From a virus (taxonomy: Duplodnaviria; Heunggongvirae; Uroviricota; Caudoviricetes): DNA of 56,004 bases. The translations under genes and the position numbers were made by a program. Every line of letters starts with the position of its first letter. Positions within the stretch are counted from its first letter, which is position 1. The DNA is taken from the IMG/VR virus record IMGVR_UViG_2744054632_000003. The stretch is one strand, 5' to 3'. This document shows positions 17,603-45,923 of this stretch, piece after piece. The notes below the pieces were generated by a model that had not been told where the DNA came from, searched no databases, and saw nothing but the letters and a program-made list of their open reading frames with translations.

Positions 17603-18379
17603 TTACGCCAGTTGTACAGACACGAACTCATCAGGATCAGCCAGCAGCATCAGCGGTGCTGACTGAATCATGGTGAACTCACGCGCCGGATCGCCGGTGG
17701 TCACCCAGTTTTTCGGGTAACGGGCAGAGGCGTTAATGCCTTCGCGCTGTGCGTCCGCATCCTGAATGCAGCCATAGGTGCGCAGACCGCGTGCCTGAGT
17801 GTTCCCCAGCACCATCGTGTTGTCCGGCAGGAAGTTCTTTTTGACGCCGTTTTCCACGTACTGTCCGGAATACACGACGATGGCCACATCGCCATACATC
17901 CCCTTGTAGGACACCGCTTTGCCCAGGTCTTTCACCGCTGTCTCCAGCTCGGAATGAGAGCCGCGACGAGTATCCAGCTTCTCCTTGACGGCTTTGAAGG
18001 AACGGAACAGCGCCCAGCCTTTCGGATCAAACACGATGATATTCACCACTCCGCTGGCGTTCAGCGCGTAGGCTTCGATATCGTCGGTCGGGTCATACGT
18101 GGACTTGTCACGCTTGCTCCACTCCGTGCCGCCGGACTGCGTGATGTTGTTGGCCGCACTGCGGCCCATATCCACCTCAACCGGATCGAAAGCTTCACCG
18201 GTCATGGTGTATTTGCCCTTAAGCACGGCAGAAACTGCCTGCATCTCTTCGACCTGGGCAATGGCCAGCTCTTCGTCACGCATGTTCTGCATAATGATGC
18301 GACGGCGGCGGTAAGCCGGGTCCGCCAGATTCTGCGGATCTTCATCCGGCAGGCGACGCAGGGTCATCTGCGGATTCAC
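17603..18379 (-). pseudogene. E: major capsid protein E, C-terminal ~260 codons, separated from its N-terminal part by the island
   Basis: VNPQMTLRRLPDEDPQNLADPAYRRRRIIMQNMRDEEL...EFVSVQLA matches lambda E residues ~83-341; frame has a stop immediately upstream. Confidence 0.9.
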
Positions 18380-18520
18380 CTCATGCTTCGGCTACATGAG
18401 TCAAATATGAAAGGATCTGAATGATTTTTAATGAAATAAATGGCTCTCTCTATCAAAATACAGCTAAAAAGCAATACACGTAGCAATACAGCGCTTCGCA
18501 AAGGTATGTCACTATATCTA

Positions 18521-19486
18521 CTAGTGCCAACCAGAATACGAATATCTTTGCTTTGCTTCTTCTGGGCTCATACCCACTAGTAAAGATACTAATTCAAAGT
18601 CAGGTTGTGGAATTGGAATCAATGCAGCCAAATATGCTGGCTTATTGAGAACAATTGTTGATAATCTAGCTTTATTCACCTTAGATAACTCAATATTACT
18701 TTCCGCTACCTTCGGGAATTCCATAATAAATGAATCAATTTCCCTTATGAGATAATCGATCAACGCCACTATACTTTCTGTCAAATCAATATATTTTGAC
18801 AACTCACTAGCATCAATTTCTTTCTTTATTTCATCCAATTTAATTTCAAACACTGGCTTGTCTTTACTGGCAATATTAGACAAACGTTTCTTTAAATCTG
18901 AATCAAGCTGATTCCTGACAATTAAACTTTTCAAAACAAAATTATAATTAAACAAAAAAGCATCAATTCGAGCAATATTCCTCCATGAGTTTCCAATTTC
19001 TTCATCTGACGGCATAATAAGTTCATGTTTTAGTATCTTGTACTTAATAAAAAAAACAAACCTCTCAAATAGAGTTTTATTAGCTGTGGGTATCTTTTTT
19101 ATAAATGAAAGACGGCTAATATCGAAATTCACCTCCCCGGCGTTAAATAAAAGTTCATTTATTGCCAGCGCTCTAAATATTGGATTTCTAGATCTCAAAC
19201 CAATATAACTACTTTTAATTGCCACAAGTGTATTTATCATCTGAAAAGAAACCATCATAAGCGTATTAGCAGAATTAAATTTCTCCGTTTCTATTTTAAT
19301 CTTCTCCTGCCTATTATTGATACAATAAGCAGTTAAGCCTCCCATAAGCGCCGATAAAAAAGATAATGCAATAGGGAATACATAATCTTTTGTATAATCA
19401 ACATCTGCTTTCAACATTAGTATTGCTTTAGCAATCAAAACTGCATCAGGGGTCATGTTAGAGCCGTCATTAAAAATTAAACACAA
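18521..19486 (-). CDS. AT-rich membrane-associated protein of unknown function (island cargo; candidate defence gene)
   Basis: Ile/Lys/Asn-rich 321-aa ORF with N-terminal hydrophobic segments; low GC versus flanks; sits at island end next to attL. Confidence 0.5.
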   Translation of the reverse strand: MCLIFNDGSNMTPDAVLIAKAILMLKADVDYTKDYVFPIALSFLSALMGGLTAYCINNRQEKIKIETEKFNSANTLMMVSFQMINTLVAIKSSYIGLRSRNPIFRALAINELLFNAGEVNFDISRLSFIKKIPTANKTLFERFVFFIKYKILKHELIMPSDEEIGNSWRNIARIDAFLFNYNFVLKSLIVRNQLDSDLKKRLSNIASKDKPVFEIKLDEIKKEIDASELSKYIDLTESIVALIDYLIREIDSFIMEFPKVAESNIELSKVNKARLSTIVLNKPAYLAALIPIPQPDFELVSLLVGMSPEEAKQRYSYSGWH

Positions 19487-20149
19487 TACCCATAAAATAT
19501 AACAGCTTATTGTTTAGAAAAGCAATATCATACACTCTATGATAAGCGTAATATCTTACAGGCATGGTGTGTTACGACACTTAATTAAACGTAATTTGCT
19601 AAAATTTTACACACAGAATCACACCAGGCTCTAACTCTCCTTTCATTACAATTGTAAGCATACAATTATCCTACCAGAACTTTATTGTTAAGCTCTCCCT
19701 TTTGAGCCCATCCCATAATGAATTGACGAAAGAACCGTATCTGTGGAGTAATCATTTCTGCGCGGTTCTATGTCGAAGACAAAATATGGTATGCGCATCT
19801 AGTCAGAGGGAAAGCAATTTTTCAGGGAAATATCATCTCTACATGGTTAAAACAACCAGAAGAAGTTATCAAGCAAGTTGGGTATGAAGATTTTCCTATA
19901 ATAGTAACGAAACGGGTTTCACCTGAGCGGTTGTGTTCGATCCGCCACAATACGCATAGGATGCCCTGTAATCCGTATTCTGCTTACTCAACAGCTTACC
20001 AGCAGGACTCGTAAGGCTGTTGCGATAGTGCAGAAGTAGGCCACGACCATAAAGTGAAGCCAGTGGCGCGTTATCGACTACTTTAGTGTAGAGCCTGATT
20101 TCAACGCAAGCGTGAGAGTTTTTTCTGGCGATAGGCCGTGACAAACAGC

Positions 20150-20330
20150 AACAAAATCAGAGAAAGGAAACGGCAGAGGCCAAAAAGCCCGTTTTCAGCG
20201 CCAGTCATTTCCTTTCTTTTCAGGGGGGATTTTAAATAAAAACATAAAGTTACGGCGAAGAAGAACGGAAACGCCTTAAACCGGAAAATTTCCATAAATA
20301 GAGAAAAACTGCGCGCCTGACGCCCCGTAA
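20150..20330. other. island cos site: cosB-like region and divergent cosN
   Basis: About 85 percent identical and colinear with prophage cos region 34950-35130; at the cosN position island has GCCTGACGCCCC where the prophage has AGGTCGCCGCCC. Confidence 0.65.
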
Positions 20331-20381
20331 CGTTCTGGATCGCCGGAAAGGACCCGCCAGCCAGAGCGGGCCCTAATTTCA

Positions 20382-20765
20382 TCAACCAATCAGCTTATAG
20401 CGACCATCCCGTGCATTGCGGCGTACACGCTCAATCTTGAGGCATAGCGCCGCATCTGGCTTTTTTGGGACAGGTACGCGGCAATATTCAGAAGCGCGAG
20501 GAATATTATTTATCCAGTCGATCACTTCACTTAAATACCAGGCCTTACGCCCTTCCGTAACCTGCACACGCTCCGGGAACTCTCCACTAGCCTCAAGGTT
20601 TAGCAGTGTACGACGACTCAGGGTTGTAATTTCCATCACCTGATTCATATCAACAAGGCGCTCGCTTAAACACATTTTGTCAGCGATAGCTTTTAATTCC
20701 TCTACAGCTGGATTCGGGTACATCATTTCGGCAATTGGCTTAAGGTCATTGTAATCATTCTGCAT
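20382..20765 (-). CDS. AlpA-like HTH protein adjacent to island cos (candidate packaging-redirection or regulatory protein)
   Basis: LSRRTLLNLEASGEFPERVQVTEGRKAWYLSEVIDWI resembles the AlpA/excisionase HTH fold; gene ends immediately at the island cos. Confidence 0.5.
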   Translation of the reverse strand: MQNDYNDLKPIAEMMYPNPAVEELKAIADKMCLSERLVDMNQVMEITTLSRRTLLNLEASGEFPERVQVTEGRKAWYLSEVIDWINNIPRASEYCRVPVPKKPDAALCLKIERVRRNARDGRYKLIG

Positions 20766-26417: not shown

Positions 26418-27101
26418 ATGACTCCAACTCCTGACGATGCTGTATTCACTGCATCAAACATTATAAATTTCTTCGTGGCACTCGGGACTTGCACAGCAGT
26501 GTTAGTTGCATTAATTGCTAAAAAGCAATCATCTTTTGAATCAACATTTTCTCTCATGTTATCTCAACATAACAATGCTCTAAATGATCTTAGAAAAAAA
26601 TCAAATTACTCAGAGTTAATTAATAAAATGATGAATGGATTGGTTTCTTTAAAAGACACTAATACACTGATGCACAATCATGATGCTGTTTTTGGAAGCT
26701 ACTTCAGAATATTATATCATCTATTGAAGTTCATTGATGAAAATGCTGGATACCATCCCTTTGATCTAGATCGTAAAAAAACCTATACAAGCCTTGTCCG
26801 TGCACATCTAGATAATGAAATAACGTATTTACTTGCAATAAACTGTGCACATGCTAACAGTGAAAATCAATATCATTTTTATAAAACATTGATTGAGCGC
26901 TATGCCATGTTAGAACATTTAATCTTGGATAAATCAACGCTATTGGACTATACCCCTCCAGATTTAAATGAATATCAAAAAGATTTGCGCGTAGCAACAA
27001 TAGTGGTTACCGATGATATAAAAACTATTTTTAACGAGATTGCAACAGTATATTATAAGAGCGCATTTGGAAAAAACCCTGATTTAAAAAATTTCCTGTA
27101 A
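26418..27101 (+). CDS. AT-rich membrane-anchored protein of unknown function (island cargo; candidate defence gene)
   Basis: N-terminal TM helix IINFFVALGTCTAVLVALIA; AT-rich codons; co-oriented with RHH gene. Confidence 0.45.
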   Translation: MTPTPDDAVFTASNIINFFVALGTCTAVLVALIAKKQSSFESTFSLMLSQHNNALNDLRKKSNYSELINKMMNGLVSLKDTNTLMHNHDAVFGSYFRILYHLLKFIDENAGYHPFDLDRKKTYTSLVRAHLDNEITYLLAINCAHANSENQYHFYKTLIERYAMLEHLILDKSTLLDYTPPDLNEYQKDLRVATIVVTDDIKTIFNEIATVYYKSAFGKNPDLKNFL

Positions 27102-28586: not shown

Positions 28587-28748
28587 TTTTAGCCCCAAAA
28601 AGCAATACAAGCTGCAATACAGAGATGATTGCAACACACAGATAACGAGGAAAATTCAGTGAAAGCGCCAGATAAACTTATTCTTTATTATCAAAAGATT
28701 AAGTGTAAAAACCAGCAACTACACGAAAGCCTCAGAAAGCCATGCTAA

Positions 28749-28994
28749 GTGCTTCGGCTTGACATATCCCGGCGTAAATTCAGAGGTGGAGCCGCCACGG
28801 GAGCGGATAACCTCACCGGAAACAATCGGCGAAACGTACAGCGCCATGTTTACCAGCCCCGGAATTTGTGAGAGATAGACTTTCTCCGTGGTGAAGGGAT
28901 AGCTCTCACGGAAAAAGAGACGCAGAAACAGCGGATCAAACTTAAATTTCTGCTCATTTGCCGCCAGCAGCTGGGCGGTTGTGTACATCGACAT
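28749..28994 (-). pseudogene. E: major capsid protein E, N-terminal 82 codons, interrupted by island insertion
   Basis: MSMYTTAQLLAANEQKFKFDPLFLRLFFRESYPFTTEKVYLSQIPGLVNMALYVSPIVSGEVIRSRGGSTSEFTPGYVKPKH then reads LAWLSEAFV-stop into island DNA. Confidence 0.9.
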
Positions 28995-29049
28995 AAAAAA
29001 ATCCCGTAAAAAAAGCCGCACAGGCGGCCTTTAGTGATGAAGGGTAAGG

Positions 29050-34939: not shown

Positions 34940-35126
34940 CTCATTCCACGGACAAAAACAGAGAAAGGAAACGACAGAGGCCAAAAAGCTCGCTTTCAGC
35001 ACCTGTCGTTTCCTTTCTTTTCAGGGGGTGTTTTAAATAAAAACATTAGGTTACGGCGAAGAAGAACGGAAACACCTTAAACCGGAAAATTTTCATAAAT
35101 AGCGAAAACCCGCGAGGTCGCCGCCC
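34940..35126. other. prophage cos site (cosB and cosN)
   Basis: Reverse complement matches the recalled lambda left end GGGCGGCGACCTCGCGGGTTTTCGCTATTTATGAAAATTTTCCGGTTTAAGGCG; 12-nt cohesive-end sequence at 35115-35126. Confidence 0.85.
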
Positions 35127-35325
35127 CGTAACCTGTCGGATCGCCGGAAAGGACCCGCAAAATGATAATAATTATCATCTACATGTCACAACGTGCATCT
35201 ACGCCATCAAACCACGTCAAATAATCAATTATGACGCAGGTATCGTATTAATTGATCTGCATCAACTTAACGTAAAAACAACTTCAGACAATACAAATCA
35301 GCGACACTGAATACGGGGCAACCTC

Positions 35326-37763: not shown

Positions 37764-38939
37764 ATGGATATAACTTGTTTAGAATGTGGCAATGTTCTTG
37801 ACGACCCAACTGTAGCTTGCGATAAATGCGGTGCCACGCCTCATGTTGTAGTGCTGGGCAAACAATCGTACTTTCCTATTGGTGCTGTAACAGCAAATCT
37901 TGAAAAAAATGATTCAAGAGCATTTGATTATCGATTAGGTGAAGTTTGGGATCTAAAAAATGAAGTCACATCTGAATTCATAACCAGAATTGAGAAAAAA
38001 TTTAGCCGAAAAAACAAATTTCATAACTTCCTAGACTCAGATCACAACCCTTCATCCATTCCTACGATCCTAAAAAAATACATTAATAAGAATAATGAAT
38101 TCATTGATTTATCTAGAGCTATAATAGAGAAGCTTAAACATAATGCTAATAACGAATCGAGAGTTGCCCAACTTCAGGGGGGGAGCGTTGTTTTCATCCA
38201 CTATAAGTCTACCGAACCAGAGGATTTGGGGAAACTTCTAATCGTAATGGTTGATAAACAAAGCGCCTATGACTTTGATTCGGATAAGTTGACCCCAACA
38301 AGATTAAATCCAATTAATACCGATGCCTTACGGCAGGCTGCGATGTTCGATTTAACTTTATTCGAAGCCAGTTATCCAGAAAACAAGGGTGACTCATATG
38401 TACATTTCTTGCAAGGTAAATCTAAAAGCGATTTTTTCAAAGACTCATTAGGTTGCCGACATGATTCGGACAATAAAAGAAGCATTCAGCAATTATTCAG
38501 TGCTATAGATATTTTTGCTAGTAAAAACTCACTCGGTCGTGTACTGCGTGATACTATTGACAATGAAGTTAAATCCTTACTGGAAAAAAAATCAAAAGAT
38601 AAACACGGAAATAAGTCCGTTAAGATAGAGGATATTTCAAAAATAATTGACTCATGCCTGACTGATTCACACAAATGTAAGGGAACGTTTGTCGATTTTG
38701 TTAATCTTAATGGTTTCCAGATTGACCCTCAATTTGAACCAACTCCTAAAGCAGCTGAAAGCGCGCTTACAATTGAAGTGGCAGATAACGACAATAATTT
38801 TAAGTTGAAAATAATGCGTGGAGCTATTGGAGACGAAAAGTCAAATAAGCCTGTAATTCTCACTGACAACAAATGCGAAATTGTGATAAAATTGAGTCAG
38901 GCAAATTATGATGAACTCAAAAGATATAGAGACAGCTAA
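37764..38939 (+). CDS. zinc-ribbon + NdpA/YejK-like (NA37 family) protein, AT-rich moron gene 1
   Basis: N-terminal CLECG...CDKCG ribbon; GGSVVFIHYKS...LLIVMVDKQSAYDFD...YVHFLQGKSKSDFFKDSLGC aligns with recalled YejK GGIVLFCHYRY...LLVAVLNNLSSMRVN...[23 protein letters not shown]. Confidence 0.5.
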   Translation: MDITCLECGNVLDDPTVACDKCGATPHVVVLGKQSYFPIGAVTANLEKNDSRAFDYRLGEVWDLKNEVTSEFITRIEKKFSRKNKFHNFLDSDHNPSSIPTILKKYINKNNEFIDLSRAIIEKLKHNANNESRVAQLQGGSVVFIHYKSTEPEDLGKLLIVMVDKQSAYDFDSDKLTPTRLNPINTDALRQAAMFDLTLFEASYPENKGDSYVHFLQGKSKSDFFKDSLGCRHDSDNKRSIQQLFSAIDIFASKNSLGRVLRDTIDNEVKSLLEKKSKDKHGNKSVKIEDISKIIDSCLTDSHKCKGTFVDFVNLNGFQIDPQFEPTPKAAESALTIEVADNDNNFKLKIMRGAIGDEKSNKPVILTDNKCEIVIKLSQANYDELKRYRDS

Positions 38940-38941
38940 TA

Positions 38942-40156
38942 ATGACAATTGCTGATGACTTATCAAGATTAGCGCAGATTATTAACGGAGCCTCAAGCAG
39001 AGTTGAGGGCTACTACACTGTCATAAGTCTTGAAGAAAGCATTGTTATTGTAAATAGTTCTGAAATAATTAGACTGTTACAATCTATAGGTTATAAAAAG
39101 GCAACAACCTGCATCGAAAATAATGAAATTTGGCTAGATCGCCAAGCTTCATCTTGGGATGATGCTATAATTTATGAGAATGTTGAGTCTTTTTGGTCTA
39201 GAGTAAACACCCAAAACGCTCTTCCGAAAAATTATATCATCGGAACGCCGTTAATACTCCCTACTTCTAAGAATGAAAGCATCGAAAAAATCCATATTTT
39301 CTTTATGTGGAAAGATATCCTTTCATTAATTGCTGATCATCATAACAGTGACTGCTCTGTCTTATTTTTCACCAATGAAGACAAAAGTTATACAGTCGAA
39401 CTCACGCATTTTTTACAATATAGCGAGATTAATCGCTTATCGAACTCGTCTCTTAAATATGAAATTATAAAGGAGCTTCTCGACACAATAAAAATCAATG
39501 ATTTACACAAAAGCGAGCGCAAGCTCGTTATACGCTCAGCCATAAACGAAGTATTTAAAGCAAATGGTACGTTCAATTTCTTTGACTTGCTTAACTCTAC
39601 TGAACTCGTCAGGAAAAAATATGATGAACTATATGAGATTTACACAAAGAGGTTTTCTGTAAATAAAATTCTTAACGAACTCGATGAGAAAAATCTTGAG
39701 TTCACGAGTAAAATTAACGAATTCATATCATCTAATCAGACAAAAGCATTGACTATTCCCGGTGCATTAATAGCAGCTGGTGGCTTAGTGAAGGCTAATG
39801 AAACAACCGAAGCAATATTGATTATCGCAGGACTTTGGATGATAAAAAAAGTCAATTACATTTCTATTGAGATATTCAATGAAACATTCGACAACTTACG
39901 TTCTCGAGTGGAGTCCGCTTTCGATAAGTATTTAAAGTTTGAAGAAAATAAAGAAATCAAAGATAATGCAGATAGTATTAAGAGTAGCATTACAGGTTTG
40001 ATTGATAAAGCTAAAAAAAGGATGAGAACTGTTAAATATCTCGCATCAGCCATGTTTTATGGAGGCCTTATTTACGTTGGATATAAACAGTTCCCAGTCT
40101 TTTTTGAAAAATCGGCAGTAAATCTATTTTATTTTTTATGCCATACTATAAGCTAA
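38942..40156 (+). CDS. membrane protein with C-terminal TM helices, AT-rich moron gene 2
   Basis: 404 aa; starts 3 nt after gene 1 stop; hydrophobic segments ALTIPGALIAAGGLV, AILIIAGLWMI, ASAMFYGGLIYVGY; no recognised domain. Confidence 0.5.
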   Translation: MTIADDLSRLAQIINGASSRVEGYYTVISLEESIVIVNSSEIIRLLQSIGYKKATTCIENNEIWLDRQASSWDDAIIYENVESFWSRVNTQNALPKNYIIGTPLILPTSKNESIEKIHIFFMWKDILSLIADHHNSDCSVLFFTNEDKSYTVELTHFLQYSEINRLSNSSLKYEIIKELLDTIKINDLHKSERKLVIRSAINEVFKANGTFNFFDLLNSTELVRKKYDELYEIYTKRFSVNKILNELDEKNLEFTSKINEFISSNQTKALTIPGALIAAGGLVKANETTEAILIIAGLWMIKKVNYISIEIFNETFDNLRSRVESAFDKYLKFEENKEIKDNADSIKSSITGLIDKAKKRMRTVKYLASAMFYGGLIYVGYKQFPVFFEKSAVNLFYFLCHTIS

Positions 40157-42177: not shown

Positions 42178-43122
42178 TTATGGTTTATTTTCTAGCTCTG
42201 ATTTTTTGAAAGCTTCTATCAGACGATTAGCATCTTCTGTACCACCAGGAAGCACGTTTGATTTTTTAAGAATATACGGTGGGAACTTTGTGGTTAAATA
42301 TTCATGCTTAAACCATCTACGAAACTCTGACAATGCAGAATCAGGATAGGCATTAATGATCTGAGGATTGGAACTTGCCTGAAGAAAATCTTCAGGGTAA
42401 TAATGCTCACAGTCTACTCTTTCTCCAAATTCTGTTGCTAACCCCTTTGCTTTCCAGTGACGCGCCCAGCAAGAACCAACACTGCCATCAGGTACGGTAT
42501 GCTGATTAATCGCTAATCCAGCATTGATGAGATCTACCATCATACCTGCAATTTCATTAAATATAATGAAATACCCATCAGGTATGGTTCCCTTATCTTT
42601 TAATAAAGATACTCTGTCATGGTAATGCCTCCACGGGTCCTCCGGTTGATATTTTAGCGCCTCGTATATAAATGTCTTGAGGCCTTTTTTAGCAAGCTCT
42701 CTGTAAGATCTAATTGCAGTCTCACTTTCTGCTTGTTTTGCTTCAAAGGCATAGTATTCAAGTATAGCCATGCATACAACATCTGGATAAGCATGGTACT
42801 CAACACCATTTCGAATTATTGGTATATAAAGTTTTTCATCTGTAAAACCTTCATTAAGAAGATATGTACCAATAAAAGTCATTCTTCCTTTTTTGAAAAT
42901 ACCGTTCTCAACAGATTGAGCCCACTCATCGGTAATTTCCTTGATTCGCAAACGCTGAACACCACAAACATTTGCCAACCCATTCTGAGTAAGGTACGGA
43001 ATTCCGTTATCGAGTACCCCCATTTCTATACCGTTAATGACAGCCTCTTGCTTAACATCTAAGTCTAAAGGTATGGATCTGAGGGAGGTAGTTCTCTGTT
43101 GTGCCATTTTTGATCCTATCAA
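42178..43122 (-). CDS. AT-rich moron protein with possible N-terminal KilA-N-like DNA-binding domain (BstA-like defence candidate)
   Basis: 314-aa ORF with AT-rich codons; N-terminal segment INGIEMGVLDNGIPYLTQNGLANVCGV resembles KilA-N/Bro-N pattern; no catalytic motif recognised. Confidence 0.4.
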   Translation of the reverse strand: MIGSKMAQQRTTSLRSIPLDLDVKQEAVINGIEMGVLDNGIPYLTQNGLANVCGVQRLRIKEITDEWAQSVENGIFKKGRMTFIGTYLLNEGFTDEKLYIPIIRNGVEYHAYPDVVCMAILEYYAFEAKQAESETAIRSYRELAKKGLKTFIYEALKYQPEDPWRHYHDRVSLLKDKGTIPDGYFIIFNEIAGMMVDLINAGLAINQHTVPDGSVGSCWARHWKAKGLATEFGERVDCEHYYPEDFLQASSNPQIINAYPDSALSEFRRWFKHEYLTTKFPPYILKKSNVLPGGTEDANRLIEAFKKSELENKP

Positions 43123-43740: not shown

Positions 43741-45267
43741 TCAAAAATAAACCTCACCATCAACCATATATTTGAGAGTACTTATCGCCTGCTGGGCGGA
43801 TATTGTTTTCATTAAAGGATAGTGTTTAAAAACAATGCCATTCATAAAATAGATATCACAGGTTTTATTATCTGTATTGATTATGATTTTTTCGAATGTT
43901 TTATAGGCAAGTGTACGACATAGCTCTCGCCCATTTTTACTGGTTAAGTCAATAGCATGAAAATCACCAAGTGAGCTCACCGCTTTACTCTTCAAAGTTT
44001 TTAATGATACAGAAGCCCTTCGTAATTCCTTATCTAATACTCTGATTTTTTCTGCTATAGCGGTAACTTCAGGCGCAACAGATAATGCAGCAATTAAATT
44101 ATTAATTTTCATCTGGAGCTCAATAATTTTCAACTCTAAAGTTTCATTAGCATCTTTCTTGTTTTCAACTGGTTGGATTTTACTACAATTAAAAAGCAAC
44201 TCATTAATGATATTATAATCAACCAAATCTCTCTTTATTGATGGCCTGTCACATCGATGCAGTCTTCTCATCGGACAAACATAATAGCCATGCAAACTTC
44301 CAGATACCGCATGAACAATCATGGTATTACCACAAGCCTCGCACTTCATAACTGTTCGAAGTAGATTTATCAACATAGGATTTTTGCTACTATTGCTAAT
44401 ACCAAAAGGTGCCAACCGAATTTCCTGCACAGCGTAAAACAAATCATCTGATATGACTCTGGGATAATAGCCAGCGATTTCACTTATTCCTTTACCTCTT
44501 GCACGATATGAAGGTACGCATATACCTATCAGAGCTTTATTCGCTAATAATTTTTCAATTACAGAAGGTCCCCATGCACTTTCTTTTCCTGAGAAATTCT
44601 TTACAGCATGATCATTTAAATACTTGGCTATTGCATTCAATGAGCGCCTTTCCATCCTGAGTTTAAAAATTAGCTCAATAGTTTTCACCCTGTCGGGGTC
44701 TGGAACAAAAGCCGTTCTTTTGTCATCTAAGGAGAGCCATCTCGGACAAGACGCCGTCATAATCGTGCCTGACTCCAGTGCATCCTGCCGTTTTTTCTTC
44801 CATGATAATTTAACCCGACTTGACTTTATCTCGCTTTCTTCATTTGCCCTTTGTGCTATAAGTATGGCTTTTATTAATGAATATGGATCATTCAAAGAGT
44901 CAATATTATAGACTGTATTATCGCAAAGAGTTATAACATCAATACCGTGATTCAAAATCAATTTCAGACGCTCAATCGCTTCACCGACTTTTTCTCTTGA
45001 AAGTCTGTCCAGACTTTCAACTAACAATGTAGTTCCTGGCAATATATAACCATGCTCTATAGCATCTAAAAATTCCGAAAAAGCTCCTGATTGTGCATGC
45101 TTTCCTTTGAATGCACTTAATCCTAAATCTTCATATGTTATGGTATCAAGATAATAATCACTATTTACCTTTAACCATTCAGCAATAAGTCTTCTCTGTC
45201 GGTTTAATGAGTCGCCAGACATCTGACCTGGTGATGAAAATCGCATATATGCTATGGCTTTTTTCAT
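43741..45267 (-). CDS. ybcK: large serine recombinase (YbcK-like)
   Basis: N-terminal resolvase motif AIAYMRFSSPGQ...GDSLNRQ with catalytic Ser context, plus recombinase domain and Cys-rich zinc ribbon; 508 aa as in DLP12 YbcK. Confidence 0.8.
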   Translation of the reverse strand: MKKAIAYMRFSSPGQMSGDSLNRQRRLIAEWLKVNSDYYLDTITYEDLGLSAFKGKHAQSGAFSEFLDAIEHGYILPGTTLLVESLDRLSREKVGEAIERLKLILNHGIDVITLCDNTVYNIDSLNDPYSLIKAILIAQRANEESEIKSSRVKLSWKKKRQDALESGTIMTASCPRWLSLDDKRTAFVPDPDRVKTIELIFKLRMERRSLNAIAKYLNDHAVKNFSGKESAWGPSVIEKLLANKALIGICVPSYRARGKGISEIAGYYPRVISDDLFYAVQEIRLAPFGISNSSKNPMLINLLRTVMKCEACGNTMIVHAVSGSLHGYYVCPMRRLHRCDRPSIKRDLVDYNIINELLFNCSKIQPVENKKDANETLELKIIELQMKINNLIAALSVAPEVTAIAEKIRVLDKELRRASVSLKTLKSKAVSSLGDFHAIDLTSKNGRELCRTLAYKTFEKIIINTDNKTCDIYFMNGIVFKHYPLMKTISAQQAISTLKYMVDGEVYF

Positions 45268-45523
45268 GGTGACACCTGCTAACGTATGCTTTTATAAACC
45301 TTAGTGGTGAGATATAATTTTTGTTTAATTTTTATTTAAAAAGACAATTAAGGTCACATTATCTTGAATATACAACAATAATCGTATTGCAATTTTCTTA
45401 CGCCATAATCTTGAAAGCACAAAAGAATACATAAAAAAATAAAGACATTAACAAAAAGCATAAAACGAGGCTCATATAAATATAAGAGCCTCCATATTTT
45501 AGTCGTTTAGAAACAAATTATTT

Positions 45524-45856
45524 TTAATGTGGTGTGCTTCGTGACAATAAATTAATAACCAACACACCGGCACAAATCAACATCATGCCTATAATGGCTG
45601 GCAGGTCCAGCCGTTGGCCGAAAAATCCCCATGACAGTAAGCTAATCAGGACAATACCGACTCCTGACCAGATAGCATAAGCAATCCCTGTAGGAATATA
45701 AGCCAGCGTCTGAGCTAATAACCAGAATGATGCACAATAACAAATAATTGTACCAACAGATGGCCATAACCGTGTAAAACCTTCTGAAAACTTCATTAAG
45801 GTTGTACCAATGACCTCTGCAAGTATTGCACCACCAAGATAAATATAAGGGTTCAT
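45524..45856 (-). CDS. emrE: small multidrug resistance efflux transporter EmrE
   Basis: MNPYIYLGGAILAEVIGTTLMKFSEGFTRLWPSVGTIICYCASFWLLAQTLAYIPTGIAYAIWSGVGIVLISLLSWGFFGQRLDLPAIIGMML matches EmrE. Confidence 0.95.
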   Translation of the reverse strand: MNPYIYLGGAILAEVIGTTLMKFSEGFTRLWPSVGTIICYCASFWLLAQTLAYIPTGIAYAIWSGVGIVLISLLSWGFFGQRLDLPAIIGMMLICAGVLVINLLSRSTPH

Positions 45857-45923
45857 AGCATATTCTTTCCTGTTCAAACTGGAGAGAATTGTACTACAGT
45901 TTGAAATCAACTCACCTGTTTCA

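Follow-up and report, generated by a model that had tools for sequence, protein, structure and literature searches.

The DNA analysed here, a window of 56,004 nucleotides from a Caudoviricetes virus (IMG/VR record IMGVR_UViG_2744054632_000003), is 100% identical to Escherichia coli EC-10 and holds a lambdoid prophage whose major capsid gene E contains a satellite of 10.4 kb. The subject of this report is the final gene of that satellite (the terminal gene), which occupies positions 18521..19456 on the minus strand and encodes a protein of 311 amino acids (MTPDAVLIAK...YSYSGWH). The island runs from an integrase gene through genes for a helix-turn-helix protein, putAbiC (on the other strand), an Icd-like protein, a DUF4222 protein, primase, single-stranded DNA-binding protein (SSB), an E-like capsid protein, a D-like decoration protein, and an AlpA-family regulator to a cos site and the terminal gene, and all of its backbone genes share a strand with the helper late genes. 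The AlpA gene (20382..20765, minus strand; PF05930, 7.6e-9) closes the series of backbone genes, with cos and the cargo slot following it. By its insertion site, orientation, gene set, and helper-shared cos, the element is a helper-embedded phage-inducible chromosomal island (HE-PICI) of the 11capE type, which has already been published as an element that resides in gene E, shows a 10-bp identity block, and has a cos in common with its helper (PMC10111431, NAR Genom Bioinform 2023). Our island shares with 11capE the integrase, primase, SSB, E-like capsid, decoration, and AlpA genes, the cos, the target gene E, the 10-bp attachment (att) site identity, and the co-orientation with the late operon; transcription of such islands by late read-through has been proposed in the same paper (PMC10111431). 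It differs in that the published account covers the element and not the terminal gene, which is a minority allele (about 17 of about 365 E. coli islands); cargo and defence are not discussed there, and the word “cargo” never occurs (PMC10111431).

The boundaries of the island are precise. The N-terminal fragment of the helper capsid gene (28750..28995, minus strand) ends in ...GYVKPKH, and the C-terminal fragment (17603..18393, minus strand), annotated as a pseudogene “missing N-terminus”, resumes with ...PKHEVNPQ. The 10-bp att core, AGCCGAAGCA in gene orientation, is present as a direct repeat at the cargo end (18384..18393) and at the integrase end (28750..28759), and in thousands of E. coli genomes an intact E gene is exactly the same as the window as far as position 18393. 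Between the stop codon of the terminal gene and the att core lies a terminal arm of 127 bp (18394..18520, minus strand), which is AT-rich and carries repeated GCAATACA/GTATTGC motifs that are found in the other arm too. A 13-bp repeat, AAAAAGCAATACA, occurs just inside both att cores (18466-18478 and 28597-28609) with GCAATACA repeats nearby; these repeats are candidate arm-type integrase binding sites, and a “doubled motif” in attP is mentioned for HE-PICIs (PMC10111431).

On its other side the terminal gene faces a lambda-type cos with a cosQ/cosN/cosB-like block (20151..20357, minus strand), recognised by its similarity to the cos of the helper prophage (34952-35158), with which it shares 184 of 208 positions (88%). 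The 12-nucleotide cohesive-end region (20300-20330 versus 35100-35130, both minus strand) shows several differences, the satellite having GGGCGTCAGGCG and the helper the lambda sequence GGGCGGCGACCT, while the flanking cosQ/cosB-like sequence is conserved between the two; the differences could matter for terminase nicking and packaging specificity. A previous inspection of the letters of this DNA (the sequence-only reading) had described a lone gene at the end of the island, about 600 bp beyond cos and next to attL. This description holds in substance: cos and the end of the island have no other gene between them, 695 bp separate the cos-like block from the ATG, and an att core does follow the stop codon, although under the custom for PICIs, where the integrase is at the left, this end would be called attR, which is a matter of naming only.

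Two further observations concern the composition of the island. The putAbiC gene (26418-27101, plus strand), with a GC content of 32.3%, a PF16872 match of 2.8e-16, and weak PADLOC matches to AbiC/AbiP, is an accessory gene at the integrase-proximal side, so that cargo seems to be present at either end of the island. In some sister PICIs a Nu1-like small-terminase gene (169-183 amino acids) is located between alpA/cos and the slot (contig L026, 2341-2892; contigs L004/L031). There is none in the window's island, and thus the packaging module itself varies.

The terminal gene is a real gene under strong purifying selection. In the six-frame list its open reading frame (ORF) extends over 18521..19486 (minus strand) from a TTG start, for 321 amino acids, and this was the form described previously; RefSeq uses the same frame from the ATG at 19456 (WP_047083550.1, “hypothetical protein”, 311 amino acids). 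Seventeen homologues align from the Met of that ATG (MTPDA...), and the two that start earlier (P0007 and P0008) have unrelated extensions. Because the homologue N termini align at MTPDA, we prefer the 311-residue call, so that the frame of the earlier ORF stands and its start does not; the ten additional codons (19457..19486, minus strand), which are not conserved and not used by RefSeq, are probably untranslated. Besides the ORF list, RefSeq, and the homologue N termini, this coding sequence is supported by a PHROG match (see below) and by the ratio of nonsynonymous to synonymous substitutions (dN/dS), which is 0.11-0.13 at a dS of 0.7-1.7 in comparisons with orthologues from Enterobacter, Kosakonia, and Citrobacter. 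According to the limits of homology with sister islands, the gene is preceded by a cargo-specific non-coding leader (19457..19891, minus strand), and the leader and cos region gave no Rfam match.

The composition of the gene sets it apart from its surroundings, much as the sequence-only reading had it. Its GC content is 32.4% (28% at third codon positions), compared with 43.4% for the whole island, 47.1% for the adjoining alpA, and 57.9% for the flanking capsid fragment, and the protein is indeed rich in Ile (11.3%), Lys (8.7%), and Asn (6.1%), along with Ser (8.4%) and Leu (11.6%). In 3 of 17 E. coli copies (strains 20Ec-P-124 [contig L032], GPEC1446, and FCI1), a 1-nucleotide deletion splits the gene into ORFs of 141 and 164 amino acids, which is consistent with a dispensable or costly cargo. 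The low GC content and the frameshifted copies are signs of foreign, dispensable cargo.

The site occupied by the terminal gene is a variable slot. Of 5426 complete E. coli genomes, 365 have the backbone segment (the satellite capsid, decoration, and alpA genes) at a coverage of at least 80%; 17 of these 365 have the terminal gene, in every case between cos and the split E gene. Satellite termini had been proposed as typical places for cargo, and the comparison of related islands bears this out strongly, with at least six different contents of the slot in islands that have the same backbone and insertion site. Among the matches listed, the alternative alleles encode a DUF2971 protein (at least 19 genomes; PADLOC candidate PDC-S31, 8e-26), a TIR-domain protein (at least 16 genomes; matching TIR models), a protein of 438 amino acids with no assigned function (4 genomes), an Mrr_cat restriction endonuclease (3 genomes), and a DUF262+HEPN pair (2 genomes; NsnA 2e-59, PD-T4-2_A 7e-39, and PD-T4-2_B), all of them antisense to the helper late operon. 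Thus, of the five alternative occupants, all but the 438-residue protein have a domain of the defence or nuclease type. Homology on the cargo side ends at the att core, and backbone homology resumes at 19892 in comparison with the Mrr-type allele or at 20020 with the TIR allele; these breaks therefore delimit an exchangeable cassette of about 1.5 kb, roughly 18394-19891.

This variability and the known defence systems among its occupants mark the slot as a probable immune hotspot. Cos-proximal sites of P2 and P4 are established immune hotspots (Rousset et al. 2022, PMC9122126), and the 5' and 3' ends of PICIs are presented as such in a passage of He et al. 2024 (PMC11364771) that cites Fillol-Salom et al. 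2022. The slot described here resembles the known sites (PICI ends, P4 psu-int, and P2 old/tin by cos) in its terminal, cos-proximal position between backbone and att, in its high allelic turnover, defence-gene alleles, and low GC content, and in that a member of the same protein family resides within the P2 hotspot. It differs from them in that the element is a helper-embedded PICI, whose cargo is not described in PMC10111431, and in that the family is absent from PADLOC v2. The HE-PICI 11capE element and the existence of immune hotspots at satellite ends and by cos were known already, whereas such a hotspot in HE-PICIs would be new, and so is an orphan family as one of its alleles, circulating among several kinds of mobile-element hotspots.

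The family to which the terminal gene belongs is widespread and has no characterised member. A homologous-protein search returned 18 clusters, all from Enterobacterales, with 36-100% identity, and a profile search of 1.84 billion representatives returned 315 clusters (defined at 50% identity) at E<=1e-3, 85 of them at <=1e-30 and most of 275-320 amino acids. The only named family that matches is PHROG 21267 (2e-129), whose function is unassigned. Pfam gave sub-threshold noise for the protein itself and single, scattered, never recurrent matches for 115 relatives; NCBIfam gave no match for the protein, PADLOC none for it or the 115 relatives, and PDB sequence profiles searched with alignments of 18 and of 115 sequences nothing below an E value of 0.01. 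The remote-homology search called for by the sequence-only reading has thus been done and found no characterised relative in Pfam, NCBIfam, PADLOC, or PDB, with the orphan PHROG as its only yield, and the absence of a recognisable catalytic motif is confirmed by the Pfam, NCBIfam, and PDB-profile searches of the protein and its relatives. A pattern scan of the genome contigs found three loci only.

Several candidate relationships were considered and rejected. The terminal gene and the island's own putAbiC are both low-GC (32%) accessory genes whose products have an N-terminal hydrophobic helix, but the former has no Pfam match to putAbiC (PF16872), and hhalign gave a probability of 0.2% for the pair. 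Comparison of the 115-member profile with the Tai protein TaiEcA (phi80 orf63) gave a probability of 0.4%, and the 1TM partner protein of Rousset et al. (Table S2) is likewise unrelated (0.2%). For a HEPN or other helical nuclease fold, the combination of an Rx4-6H motif with a HEPN-like fold match was not found. A single domain fusion was seen in the family: P0090, a protein of 569 amino acids from a metagenome contig (L018, 1539-3248), combines the family domain with a C-terminal extension in which a coiled region and two additional hydrophobic segments are found. This extension looks putAbiC-like by eye, yet it has no Pfam match.

Relatives of the terminal gene occupy cargo or moron positions in a range of mobile elements. 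In a diverged Kosakonia HE-PICI (integrase 44% and capsid 84% identical), a homologue lies in the same slot, and in a chromosomal Citrobacter PICI one lies in the corresponding position, at the 3' end after a Nu1-like gene. In lambdoid prophages of Citrobacter (contig L010), Enterobacteriaceae G50 (L005), and Lelliottia (L027), the homologue is a single moron inserted between tail genes I and J, a position that to our knowledge has not been described as a hotspot. Another homologue adjoins a resolvase and Tn3 on a conjugative Erwinia plasmid; one in a Citrobacter freundii integrative island is seemingly operonic with two uncharacterised proteins, with a 4-nucleotide gap to the upstream gene; and others are found at a prophage end beside an ISL3 transposase and beside a PLDc_2 gene. 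An 84%-identical copy in an Enterobacter cloacae chromosomal islet (contigs L007/L009, 9855-11075) is accompanied by a terminal-arm stretch of about 140 bp from the PICI and by an att core in degenerate form (TAACTGAAACATG). The islet has no integrase, capsid, alpA, or other PICI gene, its homology with the window extends to 19603, and it gives the impression of a satellite end left stranded in the chromosome; a SIR2_2 protein of 652 amino acids is encoded nearby, on the opposite strand and about 1 kb away. An all-against-all comparison of neighbouring ORFs across 15 loci revealed no conserved partner gene, only element backbone genes being recurrent. Homologues confined to core, non-variable surroundings would have spoken against a cargo role, and this is not what we find; instead, recognised immune hotspots of three independent kinds contain members of the family.

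The P2 hotspot provides the closest link to a defence phenotype. A tblastn search of 50,697 phage records matched only P2_AC1, with 26% identity over 92% of the protein. The AC1 homologue, gp01 (305 amino acids), is situated in the old/tin hotspot downstream of 2TM, 1TM, and TIR genes, with no further gene separating it from cos, and the four-protein cluster that includes it is found in 35 P2-like prophages (Rousset et al. 2022, Table S5, PMC9122126). Resistance to lambda, LF82_P8, and P2 has been shown for an AC1 lysogen (Rousset et al. 2022, PMC9122126). The phenotype was reproduced by plasmid pFD240, described as “2TM + 1TM + TIR” (126, 185, and 315 amino acids), whose insert begins upstream of the 2TM gene (PMC9122126). 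The homologue is thus a fourth gene outside the construct, no TIR gene adjoins the terminal gene in the window, and we do not count the terminal gene as a member of the AC1 “2TM+1TM+TIR” system. Its product does resemble the AC1 2TM and 1TM proteins, as well as the 1TM proteins that accompany the HAD and RT-nitrilase systems (Rousset et al. 2022), in being a small, hotspot-encoded, predicted inner-membrane protein whose transmembrane (TM) segment is the sole obvious effector feature. However, it has no sequence relationship with them and differs in having a large conserved bundle, predicted to be cytoplasmic, and no linked enzyme or sensor gene.

The terminal gene product is predicted, from its hydrophobic segment and charge bias, to be a single-pass inner-membrane protein with its N terminus outside and its C terminus inside. 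The predicted TM helix comprises residues 25-47 (19316..19384, minus strand) and is marked out by family conservation: among 115 members, polar or charged residues make up 0-4% at positions 25-43 and 2-19% at positions 44-47, and small residues (G/A/S) are found at positions 35, 39, and 43 in 89%, 99%, and 97%, forming an S35-xxx-G39-xxx-A43 zipper. Motifs of the small-xxx-small-xxx-small type are associated with oligomerisation of TM helices. The mean number of Lys and Arg residues beside the helix is 1.8 on the N-terminal and 3.7 on the C-terminal flank (C>N in 113 of 132 representatives, N>C in 5, and tied in 14), and by the positive-inside rule this bias would therefore place the large domain in the cytoplasm. 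The earlier proposal of a membrane protein is thus supported by prediction, with one true TM segment in place of the several N-terminal hydrophobic segments first described, the other being a short amphipathic helix (residues 3-15).

AlphaFold2 with the family alignment produced a confident, all-helical model (predicted local distance difference test score 85.7, predicted template modelling score 0.76). Apart from the amphipathic helix, the model contains a helix of 60 residues (21-81), two long helices (161-195 and 216-252), and other short ones, so that the predicted layout would be an outside N-terminal tail of about 24 residues, one TM helix, and some 260 residues forming an all-helical bundle in the cytoplasm. 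Outside the TM helix, the near-invariant residues are polar and lie on bundle helices (N64, K81, Y84, R95, N170, R181, E227, and D234); in the model they are predicted to be buried. A Foldseek search of PDB and BFVD with this model returned nothing with E<0.1, and the fold resembles generic helical bundles only, so that structure prediction, which the sequence-only reading had also called for, supplied a fold and no significant match to it. The ligand-binding four-helix bundles of PilJ, Tar, and TorS and the DUF3829 fold share 5-12% identity with it, and de novo designed bundles score equally. The similarity to sensor modules of chemoreceptors and histidine kinases is a likeness of shape and not a sign of homology; the bundle of the terminal gene product is predicted to be cytoplasmic, following a single TM helix.

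Taken together, the reading we favour, which we rate at slightly below an even chance, is that the terminal gene is exchangeable terminal cargo encoding a stand-alone inner-membrane anti-phage protein, a membrane switch of the abortive-infection (Abi) or exclusion type. RexB-type proteins are examples of stand-alone membrane Abi proteins. The protein would protect the lysogen, and hence the satellite together with its helper, from competing phages: the cytoplasmic bundle would sense a phage-derived cue, and packing of the TM zippers into a homo-oligomer would follow and impair the inner membrane. The anti-phage function, the sensing, and the pore formation are our inferences from the features described above. 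With somewhat less confidence, we suggest that PHROG 21267 as a whole may be a new, partner-independent family of single-protein anti-phage systems, combining a glycine-zipper TM helix with a cytoplasmic helical sensor bundle, whose polar core is conserved, in a 1.5-kb cassette that moves among mobile elements. These would include helper-embedded and chromosomal PICIs, P2-like phages, lambdoid tail operons (as morons), and plasmids, and in the window the protein would stand guard over three nested layers, the host, its helper prophage, and the satellite embedded in it.

Several points weigh against this reading. (i) The AC1 defence phenotype was reproduced by the three neighbouring genes without the family homologue; because the homologue was left out of that construct, the function proposed for the terminal gene is drawn from its location. 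(ii) The sequence, profile, and fold searches described above revealed no homology to any validated defence system. (iii) A few homologues are located at chromosomal sites that show no obvious mark of a mobile element or of defence, between genes for an MFS transporter and an ankyrin protein, beside CheR, or near an orphan Hcp. (iv) The terminal gene is co-oriented with the helper late operon, whereas all five alternative occupants are antisense to it, and a scan for promoters and terminators, which performed no better than on shuffled sequence, recovered no consensus promoter upstream of the gene on the minus strand. (v) The predicted topology takes the positive-inside rule as its single basis, and a pore-forming role would be an extrapolation from one feature, the packing motif.

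Four other explanations were considered. The one that survives best, although we consider it unlikely, is that the gene is non-defence cargo riding in the same slot, whether as a factor for lysogenic conversion or fitness or as a selfish, neutral passenger whose membrane-associated role is unrelated. Satellite and prophage slots carry non-defence morons too, and such cargo would fit the ordinary-looking chromosomal neighbourhoods of some homologues, the three frameshifted copies among the 17 from E. coli, and the failure of PADLOC to match the protein or its 115 relatives. It is harder to reconcile with the defence or nuclease-type domains of four of the five alternative slot occupants, with the presence of the family in three independent kinds of recognised immune hotspot, and with purifying selection as strong as a dN/dS of about 0.12.

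Superinfection exclusion, in which a membrane-anchored protein blocks the entry of an incoming phage genome at the inner membrane without killing the cell, is less likely still. HK97 gp15 and P22 SieA are prophage morons known for superinfection exclusion, and a predicted single-pass inner-membrane protein that has no enzymatic motif and is encoded by a moron in lambdoid tail operons, as well as in P2 and PICI hotspots, would not be out of place beside them. Known exclusion proteins usually expose their functional part to the periplasm, however, whereas the Lys and Arg bias would put a domain of about 260 residues in the cytoplasm and about 24 residues outside, and the conserved, predictedly buried polar residues of the bundle suggest a sensing or switching domain.

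It is also conceivable, but improbable, that the protein is an orphan effector or accessory that needs a signal from another gene, such as one for a TIR enzyme, with the partner encoded elsewhere in the case of the window's island. The clustering with 2TM, 1TM, and TIR proteins in 35 P2-like prophages, the apparent operon in the C. freundii island, the SIR2_2 gene nearby in Enterobacter, and a conserved polar pocket that could bind a ligand all point in this direction. Yet no partner family recurs over the 15 loci, the gene stands alone in the window, in the PICIs of Kosakonia and Citrobacter, and as a lambdoid I-J moron, the AC1 TIR system works without the family homologue, and the Enterobacter SIR2_2 gene is about 1 kb away on the opposite strand. 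A role in the life cycle of the satellite itself, with late expression after induction and an effect on lysis timing, helper interference, or packaging and not on foreign phages, is very improbable: it would suit the co-orientation with the late operon, the position immediately downstream of cos, the lack of a detected terminator or promoter, the late read-through proposed for HE-PICIs (PMC10111431), and the placement of lambdoid homologues within the late tail operon, but about 95% of islands with the same backbone are without the gene, and a core function of satellites is excluded by the presence of family members on a plasmid, in P2 hotspots, and in chromosomal islets.

Further observations concern the helper prophage outside the island. 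A BstA-family protein, known as a prophage abortive-infection protein, is encoded at 42178-43122 (minus strand; PADLOC BstA, 3.8e-121). A two-gene cassette of 34-36% GC lies on the opposite strand (37764-40156, plus strand) between the Q antiterminator and holin genes; it encodes an NA37 nucleoid-associated-like protein (391 amino acids) and a protein of 404 amino acids with no Pfam or PADLOC match, and it may be another moron or a candidate for defence. In the early region of the prophage, a stretch of low GC content (43741-45910, minus strand) encodes a large serine recombinase (508 amino acids) and an SMR-family small multidrug transporter (128 amino acids).

If the terminal gene had no phage phenotype, it would be one more hypothetical moron, and interest would shift from the gene to the slot. 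If it does exclude phages, an unannotated single-gene family of 315 clusters, invisible to Pfam, NCBIfam, and PADLOC, would join the defence catalogue, and HE-PICIs would possess a cos-distal immune hotspot like those of P4, P2, and classical PICIs. Because the protein has neither an enzymatic domain nor a partner gene, it would then also offer a compact model for the sensing of infection by a membrane-tethered helical bundle.

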